DNA of 64,000 bases from positions 6,607-70,606 of the IMG/VR virus record IMGVR_UViG_3300037189_004270; one strand, written 5' to 3'. Positions 2,251 to 21,143 of the stretch are shown here, piece by piece (position 1 is the first letter of the stretch; the number at the start of each line of letters is the position of its first letter). Position numbers and translations under genes: made by a program. Source of the stretch: a virus. The notes beneath the pieces are model-generated. The model worked only from the letters and a program-made list of their open reading frames with translations. It had not been told where the DNA came from and did not search any database.

Positions 2251-2265
2251 TATAATATAACTATG
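2251..2265 (+). promoter_or_regulatory. Leaderless promoter (TATAAT-N6-ATG)
   Basis: TATAAT 2251-2256, ATG 2263. Confidence 0.65.
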
Positions 2266-4029
2266 GCTAAAAGACTATTATCTACTCAAAGAATTGTAAA
2301 TTTAGCAGCAGACCCTGCAACTGGTACTGCTGGTGAAATTTATTACAATACTGTAAGTAATAGTTTTAAGTATTATGATGGATCTGCATGGTCTGTTCTT
2401 TCAACGGGCGTTCCAGTAGGCGGAACAGGTGGTCAGATATTAGCAAAAATCGATGCAACAAATTATAATACGCATTGGATTGATAATATTGCTAATTACA
2501 CATCTCAAGTTAAGCATAATGTAAAAGCGGCAGAGGCAATAAATAAAGGACAAGCCGTTTATGTATCATCTGCAGATGGTGCAAATATGGTTGTTTCTAA
2601 AGCATCAAATTCTTCAGAAGTAACATCATCAAAAACAATGGGTCTTCTGGAACAAAACCTATCTACTAATGCTACAGGGTTTGTTGTTACAGAAGGATTG
2701 ATTTCTGGATTAAATACTTCTGGAGCCAACGCAGGAGATCCAGTTTGGCTGGGTACGAATGGAAATCTCCTTTACGGGACTGCCAACAAACCATCCGCCC
2801 CGATACACACGGTTTTTATAGGTATAGTTACTAGAGTTCAACAAAATAATGGTCAAATTTTTGTCAAGGTACAAAATGGATTTGAACTAGATGAAATTCA
2901 TAATGTATCTATATCAAATCCAACTACAGGACAAATACTAAAATATAATTCATCAACTGGATTATGGGAAAATGGATCAATTGATGGCGCGGTATTTGAA
3001 GTATTCTACCAAGCAGACTCCCCTTCCTCCCCACAACTTGGAGATATTTGGGTAGAGTCTGATGTTGATGTTCCAGAATATTCTGCCCTAAATATAGATA
3101 CACTTGTTCCAAATCAGAGTGGGAACTCAGGTAAGTATTTAACAACAAATGGAACAGCAGTATCCTGGGGCACTTTAAACCTTTCTATTTATGCACCATT
3201 ATCATCACCAGCATTAACTGGTGTTCCCACCGCCCCTACTGCGAATGCTGCAACAAATACAACTCAAATTGCAACCACAGCATTTGTGAGAACAGAAATT
3301 TCTAACCTAGTTGATTCAGCACCAGGCGCACTTGATACCTTAAACGAACTAGCAGCAGCCATAAACGATGATGCCAATTTTGCAACAACGGTTACAACGG
3401 CCTTAAGTAGCAAAGAGCCAACTATTACTTCTGGGACTACCTCCCAATATTGGAGGGGGGACAAGTCATGGCAGACACTTAATAAGTCTGCTGTTGGACT
3501 ATCTAATGTAGAAAATACCGCTCTTTCAACATGGGCTGGAAGTTCAAGTATAACTACTCTAGGTACAATTTCTTCTGGCACATGGCAAGGATCTTCTATT
3601 TCATCAACATATATTGACTCAGCAATAGCAAGATTATCAAGTCCTACGTTTACTGGAACAGCAAACGCGGAAAGACTTTCTGTTGATTCAACAGTATTTA
3701 TTGATACTATAACAACAACCGTATCATCTACAAACGCTACAGAGATAGACTCATTTGCTCAATCATCATTCTCTTCCTGTGAATATTTAATTCAAATTAA
3801 ACAAGGCTCTAAGGTTACAATACTCAAAGCGTTGATGACTTCAGCGAACCTTGATATAGTTCAGTATGGAATAGTAGAATCTGGAGGAACTATCCCTTAT
3901 ACAATAACCACAGATAGTTTTATCCCAGGCGGCGGTGGCGGGGCACTTACCAACAAATTATTAATTACAATAACTGATGCCAATTCTACCTCTGCAACAG
4001 TTAAGGTTGTAAGAACATCCGTGGTATAA
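2263..4029 (+). CDS. Tail/collar fibre protein
   Basis: PTAPTA..TTQIATTAFV and APGALDTLNELAAA..DDANFA fibre repeats. Confidence 0.75.
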   Translation: MAKRLLSTQRIVNLAADPATGTAGEIYYNTVSNSFKYYDGSAWSVLSTGVPVGGTGGQILAKIDATNYNTHWIDNIANYTSQVKHNVKAAEAINKGQAVYVSSADGANMVVSKASNSSEVTSSKTMGLLEQNLSTNATGFVVTEGLISGLNTSGANAGDPVWLGTNGNLLYGTANKPSAPIHTVFIGIVTRVQQNNGQIFVKVQNGFELDEIHNVSISNPTTGQILKYNSSTGLWENGSIDGAVFEVFYQADSPSSPQLGDIWVESDVDVPEYSALNIDTLVPNQSGNSGKYLTTNGTAVSWGTLNLSIYAPLSSPALTGVPTAPTANAATNTTQIATTAFVRTEISNLVDSAPGALDTLNELAAAINDDANFATTVTTALSSKEPTITSGTTSQYWRGDKSWQTLNKSAVGLSNVENTALSTWAGSSSITTLGTISSGTWQGSSISSTYIDSAIARLSSPTFTGTANAERLSVDSTVFIDTITTTVSSTNATEIDSFAQSSFSSCEYLIQIKQGSKVTILKALMTSANLDIVQYGIVESGGTIPYTITTDSFIPGGGGGALTNKLLITITDANSTSATVKVVRTSVV

Positions 4030-4053: not shown

Positions 4054-4599
4054 GTGAACTGGGTGCCTGACAAGAATTTTAAAGTCAAGAATGCCCTTGA
4101 ATTAGGAACCGCATCAATAGTAACACCTGGCGGTACACTATCTTTACCAAGCGCAACCGATACGGTAATTGGTAGAGCAACGACTGACACATTAACAAAT
4201 AAGACTTTACTTAGTGCAGAGGAAATTACTACAATTTCCTCAACAGCCGCAACAGGAACAATTAACTTCGATGCAGTTACGCAGTCTATACTTTATTACA
4301 CCACAAATGCAAGTGGCAACTGGACCCTAAATATAAGGGGAAACTCTTCTACAACTCTTAGTTCAATTCTTCCAGTTGGAAGTTCTATAACTGTAGTATT
4401 TATGGTTAGTCAAGGAACTACGACTTTCTACCAGACCGGATTCCAGATAGACGGTACTTCTCATACCCCAAGGTGGCAGGGAGGATCTGCTCCAACTGAA
4501 GGTAATGCTTCAGGTATTGATATTTATTCCTTCTCAATTACTAAGACCGCTGGAACGCCCACATACCTGACTATAGGAACGATGGCAGGCTTTGCGTAA
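4054..4599 (+). CDS. Fibre protein, paralog of the 14707..15405 C-terminal domain (start may be GTG 4063)
   Basis: Shares YYTTNAS.NWT.N.RG.SSTTL, GFQ.DG...TPRW and GNA..IDIY.F with 14707..15405. Confidence 0.7.
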   Translation: MNWVPDKNFKVKNALELGTASIVTPGGTLSLPSATDTVIGRATTDTLTNKTLLSAEEITTISSTAATGTINFDAVTQSILYYTTNASGNWTLNIRGNSSTTLSSILPVGSSITVVFMVSQGTTTFYQTGFQIDGTSHTPRWQGGSAPTEGNASGIDIYSFSITKTAGTPTYLTIGTMAGFA

Positions 4600-5741
4600 T
4601 GCCACTTTTATCATCTCGCGCCTCTGGATCTGTAAGAGCCTTTGGGCTGACAATTTTATCCGCATTGACTTCGGCAATTGATTTATTTACCAGACCCGAT
4701 CAATCTGGATTAGGAACGGTAAAGGGGCAAAGATGGAGGGTTTGGCGAGGAGTTTGGGGAATTGCAAGCAACAGGGCTTCTTCCTCTACCGCTTCCTCAT
4801 CTTATCCATTAGCCACTCTTACATTTACAAAACAAGATGCTACTGTAAGTATAGGTGGGCCAAATCCAGGAACTGGGGCGGCATTCTGGGTAACTGATGC
4901 AAATAATTGGTATTCAACTGTATATGTCCAGCAAGAGGTATGTCAAACTTGCACAAATTGTAATGCTTGGAATGCTAATAATTGTGCGGAAGCGTCAGGA
5001 GGATTCTGTGCTACATGGAATAACGTAAATCCCTGCTCCTACTGGCAATGTAGTGATGGTGGTACTAATTGTGGCAACTGTGCGCCAGGGGCGTTTAATC
5101 CCACAACTGGAGGAACTTGTCAAACTAGAAACCCCGACATCTGTGCCAACGTTAATGGCTCATTCTGCAAAGGCTTTAGCCAAGGTCCCTGCGTTAATTG
5201 GAATAATTTCGCTCCAAAAGGCTTTTGCTCTGGAAGGAGTCCGGACGTCTGTAGTGGTGGATGGAATACCTCTAACTGTGCAGCATGGAATACAGGTAAC
5301 TGTACATCCTGGAATCCATTAGTATTTGGAAACTGTAATTCCTGGAATAATCCTGTATGTCAAGGAAATACACCAGGAAATTGCTCAAGCGCCAACCCAG
5401 TTATCTGCAATGCTTTCAACCCTTCCAACTGTAATGCATTCTTTAGTTTTTCATGTAACTGTGTAACAGAAAATAGAATTAATATTATTTCATCTATAAC
5501 TTCAACCGTCACCACTCTGGTTTCGACTCTTTGGTCAGGAACAATTGGATCTTTTAAAACAATTGTATCTGGAAATAGTGCAACTATCCAAGTATACACT
5601 TCTACAAATTACACATCGCAAATAGGTTCAAATAGCGTACAAAACATATCTTCTCCGCAAAAATCAAAATTATTTGGTATAATTAAGGCTCCAAGTCCTA
5701 TCGGGTCTGGCAATTCTATTGATGAATTTAGGGTTGAGTAA
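4599..5741 (+). CDS. Virion-associated protein with a 24-Cys/Asn-rich insert
   Basis: Beta-rich N- and C-terminal parts flank CxxWNxxxC-type repeats. Confidence 0.65.
   Translation: MPLLSSRASGSVRAFGLTILSALTSAIDLFTRPDQSGLGTVKGQRWRVWRGVWGIASNRASSSTASSSYPLATLTFTKQDATVSIGGPNPGTGAAFWVTDANNWYSTVYVQQEVCQTCTNCNAWNANNCAEASGGFCATWNNVNPCSYWQCSDGGTNCGNCAPGAFNPTTGGTCQTRNPDICANVNGSFCKGFSQGPCVNWNNFAPKGFCSGRSPDVCSGGWNTSNCAAWNTGNCTSWNPLVFGNCNSWNNPVCQGNTPGNCSSANPVICNAFNPSNCNAFFSFSCNCVTENRINIISSITSTVTTLVSTLWSGTIGSFKTIVSGNSATIQVYTSTNYTSQIGSNSVQNISSPQKSKLFGIIKAPSPIGSGNSIDEFRVE
4941..5462 (+). repeat. Cys-periodic peptide repeat (about 8-residue period)
   Basis: 24 Cys, mostly spaced C-x7-C. Confidence 0.8.
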
Positions 5742-6076
5742 TGAAAAATAATAAAACTAAAAAAAGAGATACTTATAGATCTTATATTTTTAAAAAAACA
5801 CTTAATAGGTTTAAGTTGTTTAAAAAAAATACTAAGGTTAAGGATGATACAAACAATCTTCCCAGGTCTCCATATGGGTCGGCACAGGACGCCCCCATGC
5901 ACATAGCATTTATAGTAGATGGTATTGTAGAAGACATAATTCATTGCGACGAGAGGTTTGGATACTTATTGATAAGTGATCCTTTAATTATTAAATTAGA
6001 AAATTATGGTTCAGTAAAAATTAATGATATTTATGATGAAGAAGCAGGATCATTTAAATCTGACGATGAGATATAG
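5741..6076 (+). CDS. Hypothetical protein, paralog of 6322..6528
   Basis: Shared AFI.DG.V..I...DER....L.S.P.II. Confidence 0.6.
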   Translation: MKNNKTKKRDTYRSYIFKKTLNRFKLFKKNTKVKDDTNNLPRSPYGSAQDAPMHIAFIVDGIVEDIIHCDERFGYLLISDPLIIKLENYGSVKINDIYDEEAGSFKSDDEI

Positions 6077-6078
6077 TT

Positions 6079-6318
6079 ATGGATAAAGAAAAAAATGTTC
6101 GGCCATGGGATTTATTTAATAAAAAATCGGGAAGAGTTACTATAGAGGATTCAAAAAACAGATTGGGCATTTGTAAAGAGTGTCCGTTTTTTATTAAATT
6201 GACTAAGCAATGTACTAAGTGTGGATGCATAATGACACAAAAAACAAAACTTTCGGAAGCATTCTGCCCTATAGGAAAATGGGATAAAATAGATTATTCA
6301 AAAAAGGGAGGTGAATGA
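6079..6318 (+). CDS. Small Cys-rich putative metal-binding protein
   Basis: CKEC...CTKCGC...CPIGKW. Confidence 0.7.
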   Translation: MDKEKNVRPWDLFNKKSGRVTIEDSKNRLGICKECPFFIKLTKQCTKCGCIMTQKTKLSEAFCPIGKWDKIDYSKKGGE

Positions 6319-6321
6319 ATA

Positions 6322-6528
6322 ATGGAAACCAGAACACTAGCGTTCATCCTTGATGGAGAAGTAGTGTCAGTCGTCAACTTTGATGAAAGAACAGCAAGTA
6401 TTTTTTTAAGCAATCCAACGATTATAGATATTACTTCAAATAATGTTTCTCAAGGATGGAATTATGATCCAGAAAAAGGATTATATGCAGAAATTGATGG
6501 CGAAGAAGTTGTAGTAGATCCACGATAA
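6322..6528 (+). CDS. Hypothetical protein (fibre-chaperone-like), paralog of 5741..6076
   Basis: Strong GGGAGGTGA SD; motif shared with 5741..6076. Confidence 0.6.
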   Translation: METRTLAFILDGEVVSVVNFDERTASIFLSNPTIIDITSNNVSQGWNYDPEKGLYAEIDGEEVVVDPR

Positions 6529-6544
6529 ACAGAAGAGAGAAAAA

Positions 6545-7303
6545 GTGATAAAAAGGATAAGATTTATTCCATCCAGCATATCTGCGATGGAAAATGTTCC
6601 TATGCCGTCGCCAGTTAAAAAACATATTCCCGAATGGTATAAAAAGGCAGAATATGCCATAGACAACAAGACTAATAAAAAAACTAGTAATTTGAGTGGA
6701 GATATTTCTGGTGGTTTAAAGTCATGCATACCCTTTCTAGACGTAATGTTGTCTGGATATGTGATGGAGACATGGGAGTCTATAGAAGTATATGAAAACT
6801 CAGAGAATAGTTTCAAGTGGAGATATGTAGAAAATAATCCATATACAGATGACATACAAGAAAAAATAAATATTACTGTATCTATGATAGGAGAAAGAGA
6901 AGGCGACTCAGGTCATACCATCCCCCGCCCAGCAGGGCATAGGAATAATCATATGATATGGAAAGGCCAATGGGGGGTTAGGCTTCCAAGAGGGTGGAGC
7001 CTATTGATTACTCATCCATTTAATAGATGGGATCTGCCATTTACAACTACTTCAGGGATTATAGATTCAGATGAATGGTGGACTAGTGGTAATATGCCAT
7101 TCTTTTTTAAAAATGGGTGGGTAGGTGTAATACCAAAAGGAACTCCGTTCTGCCAATTAATACCAATTAAAAGAAGTTCCTGGTCAGCATATAAAAGTGT
7201 TTTAAGTACTTCAAGATATAAAGATTTAAGCAATAAAGTTTCTGATAGAAATAATATAGGATGGTACAAAAAAAATATTTGGGTTAGAAAAGAATATGAC
7301 TAG
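6545..7303 (+). CDS. Uncharacterised enzyme-like protein (DUF6065-related, possible dUTPase-like fold)
   Basis: IPEWYK...KSCIPFLD...GY...HPFNRWDLPF...GIID.D...IPKGTP..Q.IP.KR. Confidence 0.6.
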   Translation: MIKRIRFIPSSISAMENVPMPSPVKKHIPEWYKKAEYAIDNKTNKKTSNLSGDISGGLKSCIPFLDVMLSGYVMETWESIEVYENSENSFKWRYVENNPYTDDIQEKINITVSMIGEREGDSGHTIPRPAGHRNNHMIWKGQWGVRLPRGWSLLITHPFNRWDLPFTTTSGIIDSDEWWTSGNMPFFFKNGWVGVIPKGTPFCQLIPIKRSSWSAYKSVLSTSRYKDLSNKVSDRNNIGWYKKNIWVRKEYD

Positions 7304-8309
7304 TATTTATGTTTCTATTCCTAATTGCCTAGATTCAGAATACTATAAGACACTAAATGATATATTTGCTAATTCAGATAATCCAAATAATATTTATGTT
7401 GGAACAGCACACTCAATACCATTTAAAAATAAAAAAAATATTTCTGAAATAAAAAATAAAGTTTCCGGCTATTCAAATGTTCGATCTAAGTTTTTAAATC
7501 ATTACAGGAATCTAGGAGTGGGGTATGGAAGAACTGAATCTATGTCCATGTATGATGGAGAAGACTATGTTCTGCAAATAGATTCACACACAATGCTAAA
7601 GCCATCCTGGGACTCCCTTCTTATCGGATATTATGAAGAGGCAAAGGACTATTCTAAAAATAGCAAAACAATACTTTCTGCCTACCTAACTAAATATAAA
7701 TACTTTGATAAAGATGTTAGAGGCTTTTATGATGATACTTTGCCGTCGTACCCGTGTTTTATAAATGAAGAAGAAATGTCCCAATTTGATCCGCACTTTG
7801 ACTCTTCTAAAAATTGGAAAGAAATATATTCTCCAATAACAAGGTGGATAACGGTATTTGAAGACAGTTTTTATGATTTTATAAAAACTAAGTTTTGTCC
7901 ATTAAGAAAAATAAATGCAAATTTTATTTTTTCTGACGGGCAGTTTGCCGAAGACTATTCAAAAATAGTTCCGTTCCCCTTCTACTTTTTTGAAGAAGAG
8001 TTTATAATGTCAATAGAAGCCCACAACTTAGATTATTCATTTGTTTATCCAAAATTTAAACTACCCCTGGCACATTTATATAATGATTCCAGCAATGAAT
8101 TTTATTCAAGAGAACAGTCAATAAAACATACAAATAATCAAATATTATTTTTAACACAACAAAATATAATAAATTATTTTAATAAAAATAGTAGTAAAAT
8201 AGAGTCTTACGCAAAATATGCTGGATTAACCTATCCAGAATTAAAATCTGAAAGTATTTTCTATATACCAGAAAGGCAGTCATGCAAGAAATTGAATTTA
8301 TACCAGTAG
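7296..8309 (+). CDS. Glycosyltransferase, Gnt1/GT60 (Skp1-hydroxyproline GlcNAc-transferase)-like
   Basis: IYVSI...D.E...TL.DIF....P..IYVG; YDGEDYVLQIDSH...WD..LI; F.EEE; HLY. Confidence 0.75.
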   Translation: MTSIYVSIPNCLDSEYYKTLNDIFANSDNPNNIYVGTAHSIPFKNKKNISEIKNKVSGYSNVRSKFLNHYRNLGVGYGRTESMSMYDGEDYVLQIDSHTMLKPSWDSLLIGYYEEAKDYSKNSKTILSAYLTKYKYFDKDVRGFYDDTLPSYPCFINEEEMSQFDPHFDSSKNWKEIYSPITRWITVFEDSFYDFIKTKFCPLRKINANFIFSDGQFAEDYSKIVPFPFYFFEEEFIMSIEAHNLDYSFVYPKFKLPLAHLYNDSSNEFYSREQSIKHTNNQILFLTQQNIINYFNKNSSKIESYAKYAGLTYPELKSESIFYIPERQSCKKLNLYQ

Positions 8310-9016
8310 AAAATTATGGTAGATCCAGCATAGAGCCTATCCCAGCAGTAAAAAAGGTTCCAGGTTGGTTTAAAAGCATTCCTCCAATTAGAAAATTTTC
8401 TGGCAATGATAAGGGGGACTTTACTATAAAAAAATGCATCCCCGTATTAGATGCTTTAACTATGGGATACTATTTAATTACCAAGTATGATCTAAACTGG
8501 AAAATTAATGAAAATGGAGAACATGTTTGTGAGTTCGATCAAAAATTAGTAGAGGGCGGGGATAAGCCCATAAGTATGCATCCATTCGATCAAATTAAAA
8601 ATATAGAGTTGAATGAAATATATAATGAATATGCTTATAAATTTGCCAGTCCATATTTAATCAAAACACCACCAGGATATAGTTGTATCTTTACACATCC
8701 ATTTAATCAAATATCCCCATTTTATACACTTACGGGAGTTGTTGATACTGACATGCATCCATTAGCAGTACAATTTCCATTCCTCATGCTTAAAGGATTT
8801 GAAGGTAAAATTTCTGCTGGGACACCAATTGTTCAAATAATTCCTTTTAAAAGAGAAGACTGGAAAATGTATAATGTTTCTCCAGATAGAAGAGATAAAA
8901 GAGATAGTGACATATCAATGGATGAATTCATGTCAAATAGATACGACATGGAAAGTGGACTCCCCGCCATCGGTCCATATAAAAAGAAATACAGAGTAAA
9001 GAAAAAATATCTTTAA
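8282..9016 (+). CDS. Paralog of 6545..7303
   Basis: VPGWFK...KKCIPVLD...GY...HPFN...GVVDTD...AGTPIVQIIPFKR. Confidence 0.6.
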   Translation: MQEIEFIPVENYGRSSIEPIPAVKKVPGWFKSIPPIRKFSGNDKGDFTIKKCIPVLDALTMGYYLITKYDLNWKINENGEHVCEFDQKLVEGGDKPISMHPFDQIKNIELNEIYNEYAYKFASPYLIKTPPGYSCIFTHPFNQISPFYTLTGVVDTDMHPLAVQFPFLMLKGFEGKISAGTPIVQIIPFKREDWKMYNVSPDRRDKRDSDISMDEFMSNRYDMESGLPAIGPYKKKYRVKKKYL

Positions 9017-9025
9017 GGAATTATT

Positions 9026-9616
9026 ATGCATAAAGAACTAGCGCCAGGAGTATTTGAATACTTATTTCCAGAGGATTTAGCAAAAGATTGTGTTAAGTAT
9101 TTAGAAAAAATATCTTATGATGAGTGGCAGGATTCTCTGGTTGGCGGGGGCAGAACAGCATTAAGCATAAGATCTAGCGAAGGATACAATATTGATAATG
9201 TTCAATCATTATCTGGTAAAATTAGAGAAAGTTTCTATGGATGTGTTAAAGATTATGTAAAACACTTTGATACATCTGTTCTACAAGATGAGGGTCTGAA
9301 TGTATTAAAATACGAGGGAGCAGATAACTATACATACCACGTTGATGCTTCATGGAATATGTATAGAACTATTTCTGCGCTAATATATCTTAATCCCAAT
9401 AAATATGAGGGTGGACATACGCATTTTAAATATTTTGACCTATACATAAAGCCAGAAAAACCTTCAATAGTTTTATTTCCATCTAATTATTTATATTTAC
9501 ATTCTGCAAAGCCTGTTACAAAGGGGCGAAAATATGTTATCGTCACCTGGCTAAACGATAAGCCTATAGAATTGATAAATAGTAATCATGGGTCTGGTTG
9601 TGCCTGCTCACGATGA
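9026..9616 (+). CDS. 2OG-Fe(II) oxygenase, prolyl 4-hydroxylase-like
   Basis: HVD...IYLN..YEGG...FPS..LH...V.KG.KY. Confidence 0.85.
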   Translation: MHKELAPGVFEYLFPEDLAKDCVKYLEKISYDEWQDSLVGGGRTALSIRSSEGYNIDNVQSLSGKIRESFYGCVKDYVKHFDTSVLQDEGLNVLKYEGADNYTYHVDASWNMYRTISALIYLNPNKYEGGHTHFKYFDLYIKPEKPSIVLFPSNYLYLHSAKPVTKGRKYVIVTWLNDKPIELINSNHGSGCACSR

Positions 9617-10335
9617 ATAATTTAACTTTTTTAAATGAAGATGCGGCTAATCTAAGTCTTCCAGATGAGTCTGTAGACTTAATTTTAACTGGCCCCCCGT
9701 ACTTTGGGGTCGATCCATTTAGGTATGGTGGAGACCATACAAAGCAAATTAACTATGTAGAAAATGAAAAACAATATGTAGAAAAGTTAATTGAGGCTAC
9801 TAAAGAGTTTAAAAGAATTTTAAAGAAAAATGGTAGCCTTATAATTAACTTAAACTTTCCAATAACATACAGGTATTATGTGGAAGTTGTCGATAATGAA
9901 ATTCTTAAATATGGATCGACATTTTTATGGGACTATTCCGATGAAGAGCCATTGCCAAATACGGAAAAATTTTTTCAAACCCATCAAACTTGGTTACATT
10001 TCTATAAAGGTGATACATTCCATGAGAACCCGTTTGGCGTCAAAAAGCATAGTGGATCAGTTTTAAAAATAAAGTTTAATAATTCTCATAGAGAAAAAGA
10101 GCAGGAACTGGCAAAGCATGGATTCATTCTAGATGCATACTCTATAGACATAGCGGAGCATTTTATAAAAACCTATAGCGCACCAAAATCCGTTGTGATG
10201 GACCCGTTTGGGGGGTCAGGAGTCGCTGCCGTTACAGCCTACATGAATAACAGGATTGGAATAACAAATGATATTTCCCCTGAATCAGTTGAATTAGCCA
10301 AGAAAAGATTTGAGATCTACACTAAAAATGACTAA
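9613..10335 (+). CDS. N4-C/N6-A methyltransferase, beta-class motif order
   Basis: SVDLILTGPPY (motif IV variant) precedes VMDPFGGSG (motif I); ATGA-coupled start at 9613. Confidence 0.8.
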   Translation: MNNLTFLNEDAANLSLPDESVDLILTGPPYFGVDPFRYGGDHTKQINYVENEKQYVEKLIEATKEFKRILKKNGSLIINLNFPITYRYYVEVVDNEILKYGSTFLWDYSDEEPLPNTEKFFQTHQTWLHFYKGDTFHENPFGVKKHSGSVLKIKFNNSHREKEQELAKHGFILDAYSIDIAEHFIKTYSAPKSVVMDPFGGSGVAAVTAYMNNRIGITNDISPESVELAKKRFEIYTKND

Positions 10336-10425: not shown

Positions 10426-10440
10426 TATAATTATATCATG
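10426..10440 (+). promoter_or_regulatory. Leaderless promoter (TATAAT-N6-ATG)
   Basis: TATAAT 10426-10431, ATG 10438, no SD. Confidence 0.65.
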
Positions 10441-11631
10441 GCCAAAGTAGCAAGAGTATGGGACGGTAGTCAATGGGTCATTCTTTCTCCTGCCCAAATA
10501 AACCCATATCCATCTCAAACTGGAAATTCCGGTAAATTTCTTAGTACAGATGGTGCCGCCGTTACTTGGCAAAATGTAGATTTATCCTCAAAGGCTAATA
10601 TAAACTCACCAACTTTTACTGGAAGCCCTCTAGCACCCACCGCCACCGCAGGAACTAATACAACTCAGATCGCTACTACGGCATTCGTTAGCACAGCATT
10701 AAGCAATTTGATCAATAGTGCTCCTGGCGCTCTAGACACTTTAGATGAATTAGCCGCAGCACTAGGAGATGATGCAAATTTTGCATCTAGCATAGCAACT
10801 TCACTTTCCCAAAAGCAGCCACTTGATGCAGATCTTACTGCTATTTCTGGGCTTACTGGGACGGGGTTCTTAAAAAGAACTGGCACAGATGCATGGACGT
10901 TAGACACAAGTACATATTTAACACAAAACCAGTCTATTAGTATTTCTGGCGACGCGACGGGATCTGGTACTACTTCTATATCAATAACCCTTGCTAACTC
11001 TGGAGTAACTGCTAATACATATGGAAGCGCTACTGCAATTCCAGTCATTACTGTAGATGCAAAAGGTAGAGTTACTAGCATAACAACTAGTTCAGTAGAG
11101 GGTCTTCCTTCACAATCAGGTAATTCTGGAAAATACCTTACTACCAATGGAACAACTGCCTCATGGGGCACATTAAATTTATCATCTAAAGCAGATTTAA
11201 ATTCACCAGCGTTTACTGGAACCCCTACTGCTCCAACTGCAGCGCAAGGAACAAATACAACTCAGGTAGCAACTACACAGTTCGTTCAACAAGCACTAGA
11301 AATAACACAAATTGATACATTTACCTTCGACGGAAGGACTACGAGATTCCTACCAAAATATTTAGGAACTCCATTAGATATAGATCATCCACTTAGGCTT
11401 TTATTGAATATCAATGGTATAATTCAGATAGTTGCAGAAAAGCCAAGCGCAACCTGGCTATCTGGATGGGCTTCATTTGGATACTATATAGATGATGATG
11501 GATATATAGTACTACCAGAGCCACCAGAACCAGGATCGTACTTTGAAGCACGATTGTTTCCAGGAGTGGATTTACAGGCAAGACCACCTATTTATCCATT
11601 CAGGGCAATAGACATATACTTAGGAGATTAA
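10438..11631 (+). CDS. Fibre protein
   Basis: Two PSQ.GNSGK.L.T.G modules, two PTA..GTNTTQ.ATT.FV modules, ALDTLDELAAALGDDANFA. Confidence 0.75.
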   Translation: MAKVARVWDGSQWVILSPAQINPYPSQTGNSGKFLSTDGAAVTWQNVDLSSKANINSPTFTGSPLAPTATAGTNTTQIATTAFVSTALSNLINSAPGALDTLDELAAALGDDANFASSIATSLSQKQPLDADLTAISGLTGTGFLKRTGTDAWTLDTSTYLTQNQSISISGDATGSGTTSISITLANSGVTANTYGSATAIPVITVDAKGRVTSITTSSVEGLPSQSGNSGKYLTTNGTTASWGTLNLSSKADLNSPAFTGTPTAPTAAQGTNTTQVATTQFVQQALEITQIDTFTFDGRTTRFLPKYLGTPLDIDHPLRLLLNINGIIQIVAEKPSATWLSGWASFGYYIDDDGYIVLPEPPEPGSYFEARLFPGVDLQARPPIYPFRAIDIYLGD

Positions 11632-14706: not shown

Positions 14707-15405
14707 ATGCCTATTAATAGAATTAGGTTAGACGATGTTGATATTAGGAACATTACAACTACTACAACATTACTAAGTGAAACTATTGCAGATTTATCAG
14801 ATAGAGTAGATTTAAAAATCAATGCAAACTCCCCAGCACTAACTGGAATTCCCACTGCACCTACTGCTCCCGTAGATACTAACACTACCCAAATTGCAAA
14901 CACCGTCTTTGTGTTGAATCAAGGTTATCTAAAATCTACAACAGCACAATCAACATATTCTCCTATAGCAAATCCTACTTTTACAGGAACGGTAAATGCA
15001 GGAGCAGCATTAATAACTAACGAGGTTCTGGAGAATGCTAACATAATTGCTTCTGCCATCCCTGCTACTGCAAATATTGATATGGTAACATCAGGAATTC
15101 ATTATTACACAACTAATGCTTCTGCAAACTGGACATTTAATTTTAGAGGCGATTCATCAACAACATTAAATAACCAGATGGCAATTAATCAAGTTACTAC
15201 AGCAACAATATTAGTAACAAATGGTGCAACACCTTTTAGGGCAACTGGATTTCAGGTTGATGGATCAGCCATTACACCTAGATGGGCAGATGCCCTTGTT
15301 CCCGCAGCGGGGAATGCTAATAGCATAGACATTTATACTTTTACTCTTATAAAGATAGGAGCAAGTGCATTTACCGCACTGGCTAGTCTAGCAAGGTTTG
15401 CATAA
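14707..15405 (+). CDS. Fibre protein, paralog of 4054..4599
   Basis: PTAPTA..NTTQIA repeat plus the shared C-terminal domain. Confidence 0.7.
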   Translation: MPINRIRLDDVDIRNITTTTTLLSETIADLSDRVDLKINANSPALTGIPTAPTAPVDTNTTQIANTVFVLNQGYLKSTTAQSTYSPIANPTFTGTVNAGAALITNEVLENANIIASAIPATANIDMVTSGIHYYTTNASANWTFNFRGDSSTTLNNQMAINQVTTATILVTNGATPFRATGFQVDGSAITPRWADALVPAAGNANSIDIYTFTLIKIGASAFTALASLARFA

Positions 15406-16310
15406 TGCCATTTGTTTCAAAATTTTCTGGGCATGGTAGAGTTCCAGGAATTCACAAGCCAGCCGCTCCACCAATACCATCAGTAACTAATACTGCAACG
15501 ACATTCGATACTTTAACATTTACTATTGGAAATTATAACGCTACATGGACTTATACTGGGTCTATATCTCCAAGTGCTGGAACAATTACTTTTAGTGGCT
15601 CTACAGTAACTATTACTGGTCTTACTGGAAGTACCGCATATACTTTAACGGTAACTGCTAGAGGTTCTGGTGGAAGTAGTTCTGGAACTGGTTCTGCAAC
15701 TACTAACGCACCACCACCATTTTTCCCACCATTCTTTCCGTTCTTCCCATTCTTTCCTCCGTTCTTCCCATTCTTTCCACCATTCTTCCCATTCTTTCCT
15801 CCGTTCTTCCCAGGGTTTGGCCCCTTCTTTCCAGGATTTGCTCCCCCTCCACCCCCATCAAAAACCGCTCCCTCAAACTACATAAAGGATGGTATAAAGA
15901 TTACGCTTTTAACTAGTGAATATGGATATTTAGAGCCCAAGTACCTAACAGAAGAGGACTCTTTGGCATGCATAGATGTTGAAATTACGGATCTTGGAGT
16001 GAAGGTAATTGAAGCCACTAGCACAAATATTGTTAATGTTCAATCAACATATGACAATATAAAAATGGTTTATATAAATGGAGACTCATATCCAGAAAAT
16101 GCAATGCTTCTGTCAACAAAAGACGGGGTATCGAAATTTGTAAAATCAACAGAATTAGATGAGTCATATTACATATTTGATTATGAGTCTATGGAATTTA
16201 TAAAGATAGAAAGCGTATCCGTTGAAGATTTTTATGGAATAATATACAATATAGAGTGTAGCCCTAACAATAATTATGTTATCCAAAAAACAATTGGCTA
16301 CTTCGAATAA
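15405..16310 (+). CDS. FN3-like + Pro/Phe repeat + degenerate Hint-like domain protein
   Basis: TITGLTGSTAYTLTVTA (FN3); PPPFFPPFFPFFP...; C-terminal IYNIECSPNNNYVI like a Hint end. Confidence 0.65.
   Translation: MPFVSKFSGHGRVPGIHKPAAPPIPSVTNTATTFDTLTFTIGNYNATWTYTGSISPSAGTITFSGSTVTITGLTGSTAYTLTVTARGSGGSSSGTGSATTNAPPPFFPPFFPFFPFFPPFFPFFPPFFPFFPPFFPGFGPFFPGFAPPPPPSKTAPSNYIKDGIKITLLTSEYGYLEPKYLTEEDSLACIDVEITDLGVKVIEATSTNIVNVQSTYDNIKMVYINGDSYPENAMLLSTKDGVSKFVKSTELDESYYIFDYESMEFIKIESVSVEDFYGIIYNIECSPNNNYVIQKTIGYFE
15711..15857 (+). repeat. Tandem repeat encoding (FFPFFPP)n, with poly-Pro flanks
   Basis: Three 21-nt units at 15741-15803; units 1 and 3 identical (TTCTTCCCATTCTTTCCTCCG). Confidence 0.9.
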
Positions 16311-16327: not shown

Positions 16328-17056
16328 ATGAACGATTGGCTAACTAAAAGTCGTGAAGAAACTCATGCCCATAGAATGCCGGATAGGTTTTTAAATGGTA
16401 CATTAGTAACCAATCCAGCGCTGGGAATAAATGTGTATAACATGGCTATACCAGATAAAGTATGTAGTGATTCGATAAGAACCCTTGAAGAAAATTTAGG
16501 TAGTGATAGAGAATATAACTGGAAGCCTGCCATCGTAACTGAATCAAGCGAGCCTCTTCTAGAGGCTAGATTCTGCATGGACTTCAAAGTAGGACAAAAC
16601 TGCCTTGGAGAAAGAAGTAATACCAATTCAGTATTTTATGATATGCATGAATCTGTTTTTCGCAGTATTTATCCATGCTCTATAGATTATGGATCTTACT
16701 GGGGTGTGGGCATAAACTACTTTGAGGTATTTAACTTTGTTAAGTATGAAAGTCCTGGGCACCATTTCAATATTCATGCGGATCATGGCCCAGCCTATGT
16801 TACTACAGTTTCAATAGTTGCATATTTAAATGAAGACTATCATGGAGGAGAATTACATTTTCCCAGATTTGATCTTACTTTAAAGCCAAAAAAGGGTGAC
16901 GTAGTTATATTCCCATCTACCTTTATTTATGAGCATTCTTCTGAACCAATGATTTCAGGAACTAAATATTCAGTCGTCGTGATGACAGATTATAATTCTC
17001 GTGGAAAACTTAGATATTACGCATATCGTGAACAAGATGATCAATTGGTATATTAG
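16328..17056 (+). CDS. 2OG-Fe(II) oxygenase, prolyl 4-hydroxylase-like
   Basis: HAD...YLNEDY.GGEL.F...FPS..EH...GTKYS. Confidence 0.9.
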   Translation: MNDWLTKSREETHAHRMPDRFLNGTLVTNPALGINVYNMAIPDKVCSDSIRTLEENLGSDREYNWKPAIVTESSEPLLEARFCMDFKVGQNCLGERSNTNSVFYDMHESVFRSIYPCSIDYGSYWGVGINYFEVFNFVKYESPGHHFNIHADHGPAYVTTVSIVAYLNEDYHGGELHFPRFDLTLKPKKGDVVIFPSTFIYEHSSEPMISGTKYSVVVMTDYNSRGKLRYYAYREQDDQLVY

Positions 17057-17062
17057 GTAGTC

Positions 17063-17761
17063 ATGTATAGTTTTGAAGAAGTATCAGACAGAATTAAAAA
17101 TTTTTATACTCAAGATCAACAAACTTGGTCATCTGTTGAAGAACTAGCCGATGGCGTATTTGTTTTTCATGACGTTATTCCTCACAACACCACCTCTTTT
17201 CTGGAGGACGTTATTCAGGATACTTCTAACAATTATGGCTATATGGAGGCTATGGTTGGTTACGGAATGAAAATGCCAGAGTATAGAGACTGTCTAGATT
17301 TTAAGTACAAAAGAAGTGACATAGAAAATGATAACTCCATTTCGGGAATGTTACTAAAAAAATTATGGGATAGCGTGTACTCTAAATGCCTTCCTGCCGT
17401 TCAGTCCTACTGCAAACTCTTTAACATCGGAGAACTTAGGTACTGGGAGGCTATGAATTTTGTTAAGTATGGGCCAGGAAAGCACTTCCAGGAACATGCA
17501 GATCACGGATATTCTTACAATTGCGTAGTATCTTTAGTAGGATACCCTAATGATAACTATGAAGGTGGAGAGTTGGAATTTAGACTACAGAAATTAAAAG
17601 TAAAGCCAAGGGCGGGAGACCTTTTTGTATTTCCCTCTAACTTTATGTATCCACATAAATCATTACCAGTTATAAGTGGTACAAAGTATTCTATTGTTAC
17701 AATGCTAGATTATTCAGATAAGTACCACCGTCCAGAATTTTATCAAGAAACTGGTTCATAG
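17063..17761 (+). CDS. 2OG-Fe(II) oxygenase, prolyl 4-hydroxylase-like
   Basis: HAD...NDNYEGGEL.F...FPSN..PH...GTKYS. Confidence 0.9.
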   Translation: MYSFEEVSDRIKNFYTQDQQTWSSVEELADGVFVFHDVIPHNTTSFLEDVIQDTSNNYGYMEAMVGYGMKMPEYRDCLDFKYKRSDIENDNSISGMLLKKLWDSVYSKCLPAVQSYCKLFNIGELRYWEAMNFVKYGPGKHFQEHADHGYSYNCVVSLVGYPNDNYEGGELEFRLQKLKVKPRAGDLFVFPSNFMYPHKSLPVISGTKYSIVTMLDYSDKYHRPEFYQETGS

Positions 17762-18471
17762 TGAACATTAGTGTGTATAGAGAGCCCAACTCTCCTACCC
17801 AACTTGATCAGTTGCCAATGACAAGAGACTGGATGGACTTAACTTTCGATAGACATGCATATCAATGTTTCCCAGTATCTATGGCTAACCGCGCAGGGCT
17901 GGGTATATCATTTAAAGAAGATGTGTCATTCGTCTGGGACGGAATAAATACTTCTTCAGACCATCATATAAGGATAATTAAGGGAGAAAATTTTGCACAT
18001 TCCAAGAGAGGAAATCGTACCGTAAGTTTTGACACAGGATTGTACTTTTCCCCAGAGAGTAATCTGTCTTTGATGACTATGACTCCACCAAATATATTTT
18101 TAGATGGAATTCAATGTATCAGTACCATTGTCAGCACTTCTGCATTAGTTGGAACCTTTCCTATAGCACTAATGGTTACTAAGCCAAATGTAGAAATTAT
18201 TATTCCAGCAGGAACTATAATTGCTTCAATACTTCCAATTTCTCTATCAGAATTAAATAATATAGAGATTGATATAATTTCAAAACGTCCAGATTTCATG
18301 TCTGATGCAAACTGGAATAACAGGATGCGCGAGCGAGGGGAAGCCTCTCAGAAACTAAATTCTAAGGGAGAGTGGACGCATTTTTATCGAAATGCTGTAG
18401 ACCATAATGGAGAGCCTTATGGAGAACATGAGGCAAAAAGAATAATAATGAAAGTAAACGATGAAGATTAA
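17761..18471 (+). CDS. DUF6065-like protein
   Basis: RDWMD.T.DRHAYQCFPVSMAN..G signature. Confidence 0.65.
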   Translation: MNISVYREPNSPTQLDQLPMTRDWMDLTFDRHAYQCFPVSMANRAGLGISFKEDVSFVWDGINTSSDHHIRIIKGENFAHSKRGNRTVSFDTGLYFSPESNLSLMTMTPPNIFLDGIQCISTIVSTSALVGTFPIALMVTKPNVEIIIPAGTIIASILPISLSELNNIEIDIISKRPDFMSDANWNNRMRERGEASQKLNSKGEWTHFYRNAVDHNGEPYGEHEAKRIIMKVNDED

Positions 18472-19177
18472 ATTCATATCTAATAGGCCGTGGCTGAATA
18501 AGAGTAGTAAGAATGTCCCCATGTCTGCTGTTAAGGCTATTCCAGATTGGTATGTTTCAGAAAGCAGATATCTAAAAAATCATGACGGAGAAGATATAAT
18601 TGGTCCCGATGGAGCCAAAGTCCCATCGTGGAAAGCCTGCCCAGCGATATATGACATACTTGGCACGGGATATGTCCTAAGAACTCCATGCGACATCACC
18701 TTTTATCTAGAAGGAGACTGCCTAGAAGTAAAAATAAATCCTAGGTATGCAGACTTTATTCATAAGCGTAGCGAAATGCCAGGATTTATGCAGCCGGAAG
18801 GGTATAGGAAGGAACACTTTGCCTGGTGGCCAGATTGGGGCATAGACACTCCAAAGGGCTATAGCGTTTTATGGTCACATCCATTTAATAGATTTGACCT
18901 TCCATTTTTAAATACTACTGGTGTGGTTGACAATGATAAAGTTAATCTTCCTGGCACGGTGCCATTCTTCATAAGAGAAGGCTGGGAGGGAACTATACCT
19001 CAAGGAACTCCATATCTTCAACTTTTACCATTCAGGAGAGATGACTGGGAATCCGAACATGAGTTTCCTGATGAACATATAATGTATAATAATAATGTAG
19101 AAAATAGCGCTAAATTTCGCGTTCCAGGCGGTGGAGTTTACTTGAATCAAGTCTGGTCTAGAAGAAAGTACCTATAA
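18461..19177 (+). CDS. Paralog of 6545..7303
   Basis: IPDWY...WKACPAIYD...GY...HPFNRFDLPF...GVVD.D...IPQGTPYLQLLPFRR. Confidence 0.6.
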   Translation: MKIKFISNRPWLNKSSKNVPMSAVKAIPDWYVSESRYLKNHDGEDIIGPDGAKVPSWKACPAIYDILGTGYVLRTPCDITFYLEGDCLEVKINPRYADFIHKRSEMPGFMQPEGYRKEHFAWWPDWGIDTPKGYSVLWSHPFNRFDLPFLNTTGVVDNDKVNLPGTVPFFIREGWEGTIPQGTPYLQLLPFRRDDWESEHEFPDEHIMYNNNVENSAKFRVPGGGVYLNQVWSRRKYL

Positions 19178-19827
19178 TGGAACATCCTAAGTCAATCACT
19201 CCATCAGGATTCTTTGGCGATTCACCAGAAAATATTGTATCGCTTGAGAACTTTATATATCCTGAGGAACTAGAAAAATTAAATAGTTTTATTAGGACAA
19301 ACGATATCTGGGATGTTACCGAAACCCATTACAATGAGAATGGTACTGTAATATATGATTCGGGATATTGGGCTAATAGAGTAATCACTCACAGGAATAT
19401 GGTTAAAGCCAATGCTGAAATTCCAGATATAATTCATGGAATGGTGTTAAGATTAAAGTTAGTTGTCGATGACTTTTTTAATGTGGATGCTGAACCGACA
19501 GGCCCAGCAATGGTGAGATGGCTGCCTGGTCAATTGCAGATGCCACACGCAGATAAAGAATTACATACTGGGCCAGATGCTGGTAAGCCTAACGACTTTC
19601 CCTGGTATGATTTAGCAGGACTATTCTACATTAATGATGATTACGAAGGTGGAGAACTTTACTTTCCAAATCAAGGAATACAATTTAAGCCTAAGGCGGG
19701 AGCAGCATATTTCTTTCCAGGAGATATGAATTACATACATGGAGTTACTGAAGTTAAATCAGGAATTAGATACACCGTTCCATTCTTTTGGACCATAGCA
19801 AAGCATACAGGGGAGAAGCATCCTTGA
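19177..19827 (+). CDS. 2OG-Fe(II) oxygenase, prolyl hydroxylase-like
   Basis: HAD...YINDDYEGGELYF...IHGV..V.SG.RY. Confidence 0.9.
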   Translation: MEHPKSITPSGFFGDSPENIVSLENFIYPEELEKLNSFIRTNDIWDVTETHYNENGTVIYDSGYWANRVITHRNMVKANAEIPDIIHGMVLRLKLVVDDFFNVDAEPTGPAMVRWLPGQLQMPHADKELHTGPDAGKPNDFPWYDLAGLFYINDDYEGGELYFPNQGIQFKPKAGAAYFFPGDMNYIHGVTEVKSGIRYTVPFFWTIAKHTGEKHP

Positions 19828-20552
19828 TTATTGATGGTATAAATAAAGAAGACTTTATCATATATAAAGATGAGCCAAACTCTAAAGGTGAGTTAGGAAT
19901 TACTGATAATAGAATAGTAGAGATACAAAAATTTGTCACCCCAGATACTGCGGAGAAGATGGTCAGGTACTTTGAGCATAAGGCAGAAATGTGGGGTCCA
20001 ATTGCTTTTTATGGATCTTCTGGCATGGGCCTGCATCAGAATTCTTCTGAACTTCCAGAATTTGGGCTTCCCGAGAACTTTTTCGGACTAATTGCAAAGA
20101 AGTTTCAAGAGGCCGTAGAATCTATATTCGGTAGAGAGGTAAAGCCTAATACTTCTCATGCCCAAAAATGGGATGTAGGAGGATACGCATCTCCCCACTC
20201 TGATAACTCAGACTTTGAAGGCGTCCCTAATTCATTTCAAATTAATAAATATGTAGGAATTCTCTATTTGAACGAAGATTATGATGGCGGCGAATTATAT
20301 TTTACAGAGCATGATATAAGCATTAAGCCATCAGCCTACTCTTTTATCTCCTTCCCAGGGGGCGTAGAAAATATCCATGGAGTTAGCGAAATAACTAATG
20401 GTACAAGATATACCATGGTTTCATTTTGGGACTTTAAAGAGGCAGAATATTCTGATCAATTAAAAGAAGAGTGGGATCAAGAATTGCTTAGAGTTCGTGC
20501 AGAGCAAGAAAAGCAAAGAGAAGAGTGGGATAAGGGCAATAAGTATGCGTAG
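19824..20552 (+). CDS. 2OG-Fe(II) oxygenase, prolyl hydroxylase-like
   Basis: HSD...YLNEDYDGGELYF...IHGV....G.RY; TTG start after GGGGAG. Confidence 0.9.
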   Translation: MIIDGINKEDFIIYKDEPNSKGELGITDNRIVEIQKFVTPDTAEKMVRYFEHKAEMWGPIAFYGSSGMGLHQNSSELPEFGLPENFFGLIAKKFQEAVESIFGREVKPNTSHAQKWDVGGYASPHSDNSDFEGVPNSFQINKYVGILYLNEDYDGGELYFTEHDISIKPSAYSFISFPGGVENIHGVSEITNGTRYTMVSFWDFKEAEYSDQLKEEWDQELLRVRAEQEKQREEWDKGNKYA

Positions 20553-21126
20553 CATTTTGAATAAGCCAGATATCATAGAGGGTGTATATTACTACAAAGG
20601 AATGATTCCCAATCCACCGGAACTTGTGGAACTTATTGAAGAAACTAATGCATCTTTAACGAATGAAGAAATTATTTCAAAGTGGTGTACATGGGAGTCG
20701 TCAGATGGTATTAGCAAGTTTGGTAGTACCAAGTCAGTAGATGACTCTAAAATAGCAACCACAAGTGACGAGATTAAGTATATCTATGGAGTTATAATTT
20801 CTGCGATTCGCATAGCATCTAGGCACTATGAACATTCAAATAACTTAGATTTGGGCAGGCAGTCTCCAATATCTATTTCCAAATATTCTGAAGGTAAGTT
20901 TATGGGTCCGCATACAGATGAAAAAACTGGCGCTCACATTTCTGGTGTGTTGTATCTTAACGATGAATATTCTGGTGGAGAATTAGGTTTCCCTAATCAG
21001 GGATTTTCTATAAAGCCTGAGGCCGGAAGCATGGTAATATTTCCTTCTACTCAGCCATATGTTCATGATCCACAGCCAGCGAGCGGGGCTGAAAGGTATA
21101 TTTGCCCTGTATTCTGGTACAAATAA
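20545..21126 (+). CDS. 2OG-Fe(II) oxygenase, prolyl hydroxylase-like
   Basis: HTD...YLNDEYSGGEL.F...FPS..VH......ERY. Confidence 0.85.
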   Translation: MRSILNKPDIIEGVYYYKGMIPNPPELVELIEETNASLTNEEIISKWCTWESSDGISKFGSTKSVDDSKIATTSDEIKYIYGVIISAIRIASRHYEHSNNLDLGRQSPISISKYSEGKFMGPHTDEKTGAHISGVLYLNDEYSGGELGFPNQGFSIKPEAGSMVIFPSTQPYVHDPQPASGAERYICPVFWYK

Positions 21127-21128
21127 GA

Positions 21129-21143
21129 TATAATTAACATATG
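21129..21143 (+). promoter_or_regulatory. Leaderless promoter (TATAAT-N6-ATG)
   Basis: TATAAT 21129-21134, ATG 21141. Confidence 0.65.

Follow-up and report, generated by a model that had tools for sequence, protein, structure and literature searches.

The protist Skp1 pathway is the described case of hydroxyproline-linked cytoplasmic glycosylation, according to the part of PMC6939170 that deals with it. In Dictyostelium and Toxoplasma, the prolyl 4-hydroxylase (P4H) PhyA acts first and is followed by Gnt1, a glycosyltransferase (GT) of family GT60, which per the same part of that source requires a hydroxylated proline as its acceptor. The two GT60 activities named there are both directed at polypeptides, one at the hydroxyproline of Skp1 and the other being that of a Trypanosoma cruzi polypeptide N-acetylglucosamine (GlcNAc) transferase. 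Here we describe a virus-encoded cassette in which enzymes of these two types stand close together, a GT at positions 7296–8309 and a P4H-type oxygenase at positions 9026–9616 of a 64,000-nucleotide window. The window (G000:C1:6607-70606) is the whole stretch of DNA analysed and is taken from IMG/VR record IMGVR_UViG_3300037189_004270, a 70.6-kb virus record whose completeness is rated at 57%. From the sequence, a pathway that hydroxylates and then glycosylates is plausible but unproven. The cassette is best described as a variation on the known pathway type, with new partners and with a distribution wider than the first-pass annotation of this DNA had supposed. Such a cassette was not found described in full-text literature searches, with subscription journals and supplements lying outside the search.

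The GT ORF (open reading frame; 337 aa, plus strand) matched the Pfam family PF11397, named 'GlcNAc', over residues 57–281 with 86.6 bits against a cut-off of 21 (E 2.9e-24), and the assignment is therefore far beyond chance. The first-pass annotation had read a GT60-type transferase from five motifs, and that identification is borne out both by the Pfam match and by the motifs themselves: all five are present in the translation (SIYVSIP at residues 3–9, DYVLQIDSH at 90–98, WDSLLI at 105–110, FFEEEF at 231–236 and AHLY at 259–262) and fall on columns that do not vary across the family. Aligning 24 relatives gives D96, H98, T99, W105, D106, E234, E235, H260 and Y262 as the invariant residues. 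A search for homologues of near the same length retrieved 44 metagenomic proteins, every one of which carries PF11397. Among cultured phages, the only matches of a protein search with the GT came from two jumbo phages of Xanthomonas (23% identity).

The hallmarks of a GT-A enzyme are a D-x-H metal motif, an acidic xED-like motif and a C-terminal His. The phage GT carries the D-x-H motif (D96, H98), E234–E235 and H260, and its structural matches are of the GT-A type as well. Its AlphaFold2 model (pLDDT 89.5, pTM 0.90) retrieved as top PDB folds the GT27 polypeptide N-acetylgalactosamine (GalNAc) transferases, i.e., GalNAc-T2, PGANT9 and Toxoplasma GalNAc-T3, with E 2.4e-8 to 1e-6 and TMq 0.46–0.56; LARGE1, a glycan polymerase, ranks next. 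D96-x-H98 together with H260 presumably fits the D-x-H...H metal site of the GT27 enzymes. While these are the best solved-structure matches (E 2.4e-8), sequence identity to GT27 is about 10%, and searches of the PDB sequences with the GT and with its profile returned nothing useful. Unlike the GT27 enzymes, the phage GT has no lectin domain and no membrane anchor, and in some relatives the C-terminal position is taken by a six-Cys DUF6171 module, either separate or fused. From the modelled structure, we infer that the GT probably acts on a protein acceptor.

The P4H-like gene that the first-pass annotation had placed two ORFs downstream of the GT is the 196-aa ORF at 9026–9616, a P4H-type Fe(II)/2-oxoglutarate (2OG) oxygenase. 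It matched PF13640 (2OG-FeII_Oxy_3) with E 1.6e-13 and 51.8 bits (cut-off 27) and phrog_61 with E 2.4e-31, and its best sequence match of solved structure is the Bacillus anthracis prolyl 4-hydroxylase 3itq (E 2.5e-9, residues 22–176). The iron triad H105-x-D107...H159 is unchanged across 11 relatives, and the stretch TKGRKY pairs with TKGEKW of 3itq, which supplies the basic 2OG-binding residue. At E <= 1, the PDB sequence matches are the B. anthracis P4H, PKHD-type hydroxylases, LH3, P3H1 and the P4H of chlorovirus PBCV-1. Both enzyme genes lie on a single strand within a run from 4599 to 10335, in which consecutive ORFs overlap or stand no more than 16 bases apart, an operon-like layout. 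The order of this run is a 380-aa Cys/Asn-rich protein, a 111-aa protein, a 79-aa DUF6171-like protein, a 68-aa protein, a first DUF6065 protein (DUF6065a), the GT, a second DUF6065 protein (DUF6065b), the oxygenase and an N6/N4 DNA methyltransferase.

The two enzyme families are recurrently linked, as is supported by gene fusions, by adjacency in bacteria and by synteny in the window's sub-clade. Within single polypeptides, hmmscan found PF13640 joined to PF11397 in 5/66 long relatives. Among 60 bacterial GT loci, 25 hold a P4H-like gene (one each), and in all 25 the distance to the GT is no more than about 1 kb, mostly 0–67 bases with divergent orientation. These positive loci comprise 14 of the 17 SAR86-labelled loci, about seven unlabelled proteobacterial metagenome-assembled genomes (MAGs) with the same layout, a Wenzhouxiangella locus (convergent), a Rhodobacterales MAG (at 1 kb) and an Acidobacteriota contig. 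Pfam confirms the pairs of loci L099 and L085, and the divergent SAR86-type PF13640–PF11397 pair (L095, L099, L128, L135 and some 20 further bacterial loci, near 7300–9000) sits amid unrelated housekeeping genes (RpiR, UvrD, DctP, MazG-like). In the viruses, the order GT, DUF6065b, P4H is kept in the window and in L001, L002 and L003, which are all three of the closest relatives with known context, at GT identities of 54–33%; in L080, which belongs to a different GT clade, two PF13640 genes directly follow the GT. On a tree of 184 GT domains, 36 of them P4H-linked, the P4H label needs 15 changes, at least nine of which are forced by well-supported branches. A P4H tree puts the GT-adjacent copy beside bacterial GT-linked P4Hs and not with its own paralogues (SH-aLRT 81), among many long branches, and we draw nothing from it. 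Separately, the long relatives P0046 and P0049 carry three or four tandem PF11397 domains.

This linkage bears on the possibility that the GT is an auxiliary gene whose acceptor is no protein but, for instance, a small molecule, a lipid or a glycan of the host envelope, in which case its location among fibre genes would reflect a hyperplastic region and not its function. Fusion and linkage with protein-type hydroxylases argue against such an acceptor, as do the GT27-like fold with its best matches to polypeptide transferases, the combination of PF11397 with the O-fucosyltransferase family PF10250 in 47/66 long relatives (P0046-P0111), and the repeated adjacency of the GT to large surface-type phage proteins. 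Nevertheless, LARGE1 is among the top fold matches, and in other phage groups the GT occurs in accessory regions, either with GT-B enzymes, an FkbM-type methyltransferase and a Glyco_trans_1_2 gene (L050) or with a tryptophan halogenase and an APS-kinase-like gene (L046). In addition, the literature searches turned up no description of what the bacterial PF11397 proteins use as acceptor. Taking both sides together, we consider a non-protein acceptor quite unlikely.

Our preferred reading, which we hold tentatively and rate at somewhat below an even chance, is that the cassette hydroxylates and then glycosylates a tail-fibre-associated phage protein. In outline, the genes from 4599 to 9616 would form a cytoplasmic protein-modification module embedded among tail-fibre genes, for which we infer hydroxyproline as the acceptor residue, along with the sugar used and the target protein. 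During infection, the P4H-type oxygenase would hydroxylate one or more prolines of a phage protein, and the GT would then add a sugar, probably an N-acetylhexosamine from a uridine diphosphate (UDP) sugar, onto that hydroxyl. The target would most likely be the hypervariable 380-aa protein encoded at 4599–5741, or else a neighbouring fibre protein. The DUF6171 six-Cys protein would serve the GT as an accessory module or for targeting, and the two DUF6065 proteins would be further phage-specific components. A comparable role for phage transferases, the decoration of virion proteins, has reportedly been found in mycobacteriophages in 2023 work by Freeman and colleagues, although enzyme families, hosts and the hydroxylation step may differ.

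In an alignment of 14 relatives, the 380-aa candidate acceptor (plus strand) has conserved ends and a hypervariable centre. The centre in the window is 13% Cys, 19% Asn and 16% Ser+Thr and contains seven 'NP' motifs. Across the 14 relatives, Ser+Thr is always high, at 16–39%, whereas the centres range from Cys-rich to Cys-free and vary in Pro and 'NP' content. 'NP' motifs number 2–7 in four P4H-linked loci and 0–2 in most others, a pattern confounded by relatedness. The protein has no Pfam or PHROG match, and its profile retrieved nothing useful from the PDB sequences; structure rows in the ESM Atlas point to a ConA-like/LamG beta-sandwich, which we note as a lead only.

A second candidate substrate, for the hydroxylase, is found farther downstream. 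The ORF at 15405–16310 (301 aa, plus strand) has PPFFP/PFFP units at about residues 102–152 and an N-terminal part with a weak fn3-like match, and it directly precedes two P4H-type genes, so that the phage encodes plausible P4H substrates. Judging by its translation, this Pro-Phe repeat protein is a natural candidate for a P4H substrate. An orthologue of 62% identity in L142 (1498–2394, minus strand) keeps the repeat and is followed by the same two P4H genes. The Pro-Phe repeat protein was also considered as a relative of the Cys-rich 380-aa protein, and this was rejected; the two are not related. Chlorovirus PBCV-1 has a viral P4H together with proline-rich viral proteins. The present locus is alike in placing a viral P4H next to ORFs with proline repeats, and the PBCV-1 P4H chain 5c5t is a weak match to the phage oxygenase (E 0.23). 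It is unlike PBCV-1 in belonging to a phage with a prokaryotic-type host and in having six P4H paralogues, one of which is coupled to a GT60-type transferase.

Against the proposed two-step pathway stand a number of observations, some of which concern its likeness to the Skp1 system. The Skp1 pathway combines a cytoplasmic P4H-type oxygenase with a PF11397/GT60-type transferase, as does the phage, and the phage GT likewise has no N-terminal membrane segment and no signal. Unlike the Skp1 pathway, the phage cassette is without follow-on transferases resembling PgtA, Glt1 or AgtA, and no Skp1 was found in the record (no PF01466 match at E <= 0.1 in its 70.6 kb, at 57% completeness). Its oxygenase matches a collagen-type bacterial P4H, with no PhyA or PHD chain among the PDB sequence matches at E <= 1, and its partners are DUF6065, DUF6171 and a hypervariable fibre-associated protein. 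Moreover, a split with 99% support divides the P4H-fused GT domains from the phage clade of 75 rows to which the window belongs. The designation 'Skp1-type Gnt1' in the first-pass annotation is not supported by these comparisons.

The neighbourhood of the GT adds further unfavourable points. The record holds six PF13640 genes in 70.6 kb, five of them in a second cluster at 16328–21126, and the adjacency of GT and P4H in the window is by itself weak evidence, because with six P4H paralogues a chance neighbour is not improbable. In IMG/VR, 392 stretches encode a relative of the GT, and the best 80 of these were analysed, forming 43 groups at 80% GT identity; three loci are without a called GT ORF. 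The neighbour counts over the 80 loci were made by tblastn, and the P4H counts cover flanks of about 6 kb. By locus, DUF6065 is a neighbour in 34, DUF6171 in 32, the Cys-rich protein in 22, a DNA methylase in 17 and a P4H in 5. By group, the counts are 19–20 for DUF6065, 13 for the Cys-rich protein (within 5 kb), 13 for the small-ORF family to which the 111-aa and 68-aa proteins belong, 12 for a tail-fibre family, 8 for a DNA methylase and 5 for a P4H-like gene, which is thus absent near the GT from 38 of the 43 groups. In phages, therefore, the commonest partners of the GT are DUF6065 and DUF6171, not P4H. This linkage outlasts gene order: depending on the lineage, DUF6171 is found on either side of the GT, which itself lies between the two DUF6065 genes or behind both.

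Ten GT-bearing viral records were also scanned whole for P4H, using an alignment profile of the window's own P4H paralogues instead of Pfam PF13640. Four had a match and six had none, the latter including both records rated 100% complete (G008 and G009), and in the 95%-complete G002 the sole P4H-like copy lies about 46 kb from the GT. The choice of profile matters, as in G007 (the record of L022) a PF13640 scan found nothing and the window-paralogue profile gave a clear match (E 1.4e-23), so that a Pfam 'no match' is unreliable for divergent phage P4H copies. Since P4H is missing from many groups and records, the GT family does without a phage-encoded P4H in many phages. Likewise, 35 of the 60 bacterial loci have no P4H-like gene, and the Magnetococcales-labelled loci have none in nine, or none in 11 when Magnetococcus and Magnetaquiglobus loci are counted. 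Independent pairing events are also far fewer than loci, because most of the 25 bacterial positives share one SAR86-type arrangement. Finally, the centre of the candidate acceptor in L004 has nine 'NP' motifs, yet its record, 48% complete, yielded no P4H, so the motifs track P4H only loosely. Coupling of the GT with P4H is facultative across the family. The miniature hydroxyproline O-glycosylation pathway proposed in the first-pass annotation thus stands in part: the two families are linked by fusions, bacterial loci and sub-clade synteny, but the many viral groups and the two complete genomes without a P4H, and the six paralogues here, count against it.

The same counts suit an alternative in which the GT would O-glycosylate Ser or Thr of a virion or fibre-associated protein, and the neighbouring P4H would have targets of its own, such as the Pro-Phe repeat protein, without being required for glycosylation. 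The frequent absence of P4H and the prevalence of DUF6065 (20/43 groups) and DUF6171 as phage partners both favour it. The closest solved folds belong to Ser/Thr-directed GalNAc-transferases, and the candidate acceptor keeps a centre rich in Ser and Thr in 14/14 relatives while its Pro and 'NP' content varies. GT60 itself includes a precedent, as the T. cruzi polypeptide GlcNAc-transferase is reported to form GlcNAc-O-Thr in the relevant part of PMC9472816. What Ser/Thr glycosylation leaves unexplained are the 5/66 fusions, the placement of all bacterial P4H-like genes within about 1 kb of the GT, and the synteny in the window's sub-clade. We regard it as a realistic alternative, though a somewhat less likely one than our preferred reading.

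Downstream of the GT, DUF6065b (8282–9016, 244 aa, plus strand; PF19541 E 8.2e-8, phrog_7084 E 8e-38) fills the ORF between GT and oxygenase that the first-pass annotation had left undescribed. DUF6065a (6545–7303, 252 aa, plus strand; phrog_7084 E 2e-35, PF19541 E 0.005 and below its cut-off) is its paralogue and overlaps the start of the GT by 8 bases at its 3' end. In a Foldseek search of the PDB with the AlphaFold2 model of DUF6065b (pLDDT 86.7), dUTPases came out best and a single dCTP deaminase ranked second; these matches are weak (E 1.3e-3, TMt 0.36–0.58). In BFVD, dUTPases (E 1e-4) come directly after the family's own proteins, with rank 12, an uncharacterised phage protein, as the one exception. 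An hhalign comparison of DUF6065 to E. coli Dut places GVVDTD...GTPIVQII onto GLIDSDYQG...GERIAQMI (dUTPase motifs III and IV) with a probability of only 2%, and the DUF6065 profile had no match among the PDB sequences. The ESM Atlas returned solely uncharacterised viral clusters. Among longer DUF6065-bearing proteins there is one of 718 aa on a 2.3-kb contig, which has only the C-terminal half of the domain and is uninformative. DUF6065 occurs in none of the 60 bacterial GT loci. One guess, based on the modelled fold, is that DUF6065 may handle a uridine nucleotide. The idea that DUF6065 is a hidden hydroxylase of the P4H type was rejected, as hhalign to the P4H family gives a probability of 0.2%.

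The dUTPase likeness of DUF6065, together with the methyltransferase at the end of the run, raises the possibility that the cassette hypermodifies phage DNA, with the GT glycosylating a hydroxylated base, DUF6065 handling pyrimidine nucleotides, and methyltransferase and oxygenase preparing the base. Phage GT-A enzymes that glycosylate 5-hydroxymethylcytosine do exist, as stated in bioRxiv 10.1101/2023.12.21.572611. The present locus is alike in having a GT-A enzyme near an Fe/2OG oxygenase and a DNA methyltransferase. In 17/80 loci the module is followed by a DNA methyltransferase; L033 has a C5 cytosine methylase after its GT and L050 a denV-like glycosylase before it, and the only named fold matches of DUF6065 are dUTPases and a dCTP deaminase. 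The details, however, differ at each point. In the DNA enzymes, as characterised in that preprint, the motifs are R...DDD...EDY/F and the matches are to TarP and JGT, with a C5-methylase and a partner of the TET/JBP or ThyA type; here the motifs are D-S-H and EEF, the matches are polypeptide GalNAc-transferases, TarP is not among the listed top fold matches, and the oxygenase is of the P4H type. The TET_JBP family PF12851 appeared only below threshold (E 0.0034), on a paralogue other than that at 9026–9616. The methylase is of the N6/N4 type, and the dUTPase likeness is weak, with no PDB match at E <= 0.001 and the low hhalign probability given above. A best match to a DNA or small-molecule glycosyltransferase, which would have refuted the first-pass reading, was not seen: the GT does not resemble the DNA GT-A enzymes, and its best structural matches are the polypeptide GalNAc-transferases. 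We therefore judge DNA hypermodification to be highly improbable.

The methyltransferase itself (9598–10335, 245 aa, plus strand; PF01555 E 7e-20) is of uncertain membership in the cassette. It shares its first 19 bases with the end of the P4H gene, and a 95%-identical copy is present in L001, though the GT of L001 is only 54% identical. The DUF6171-like protein (6079–6318, 79 aa, plus strand) matched PF19668 at E 3.5e-4, below the cut-off, and phrog_13558 at E 7e-15. Its alignment shows six invariant Cys in the pattern C-x2-C ... C-x2-C-G-C ... C-P-x-G-K-W, and the module is joined to the GT C-terminus in P0033, P0035 and P0037. The 111-aa protein (5741–6076, plus strand) and the 68-aa protein (6322–6528, plus strand) are paralogues that cluster as one family; the 111-aa ORF has no Pfam or PHROG family match.

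The finding matters in that the same two enzyme families are coupled in phages, in the abundant marine SAR86 bacteria and in fused proteins, which makes a prokaryotic or viral version of the system directly testable. It also provides first functional contexts for DUF6065 and DUF6171. Were the target a fibre-associated protein, as in our preferred reading, marine phages would have a new way of altering the surface with which they recognise hosts, and there would be a use for the many 2OG oxygenase genes that are unexplained in cyanophage-like genomes. A bolder version would make this a complete hydroxyproline O-glycosylation pathway outside eukaryotes, which here decorates the hypervariable loop region of a tail-fibre-associated receptor-binding protein, employs DUF6065 (of dUTPase fold) and six-Cys DUF6171 as two new accessory families, and has in its P4H/GT60 pair a standing two-gene unit in SAR86. 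As a whole we find this version doubtful; if true, it would suggest that the protist Skp1 modification arose in prokaryotes or viruses and would give phages an oxygen-dependent way of altering their adsorption apparatus.

Turning to the wider surroundings, tail-fibre-like genes at 2263–4029, 4054–4599 and 10438–11631, found by PHROG scan, lie on both sides of the cassette. Beyond the cassette lies a 1019-aa virion protein of about 39% identity to its counterparts in Synechococcus phages S-PM2 and S-RSM4. These flanking tail-fibre PHROGs and the resemblance of the virion protein mark the window as DNA of a phage, an uncultured one of marine type. At the DNA level, positions 6545–10335 had no match in cultured phages. 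The second modification cluster (16328–21126, plus strand; Pfam and PHROG scans) is without a GT and reads P4H, P4H, DUF6065, DUF6065-like, P4H, P4H, P4H; its two DUF6065-type genes bring the record to four.

Several other gene contexts of the GT were seen in its relatives. In L033, the C5 cytosine DNA methylase after the GT belongs to the stretch 6001–7592. Locus L050 (4488–5884) has, besides its denV-like pyrimidine-dimer glycosylase before the GT, a reverse-strand block comprising the GT-B, FkbM-methyltransferase and Glyco_trans_1_2 genes. In L046 (1925–4764; record of 107.7 kb, rated 100% complete), the tryptophan halogenase (PF04820, E 3e-99) stands a few kb before a DUF6065–GT pair, as does the APS-kinase/cytidylyltransferase-like gene. 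In the window itself, the second oxygenase cluster is followed at 21141–24494 by a 1117-aa protein with CBM_4_9 carbohydrate-binding domains (E 7e-19), which, judging by these domains, is likely a glycan-binding fibre or receptor-binding protein.

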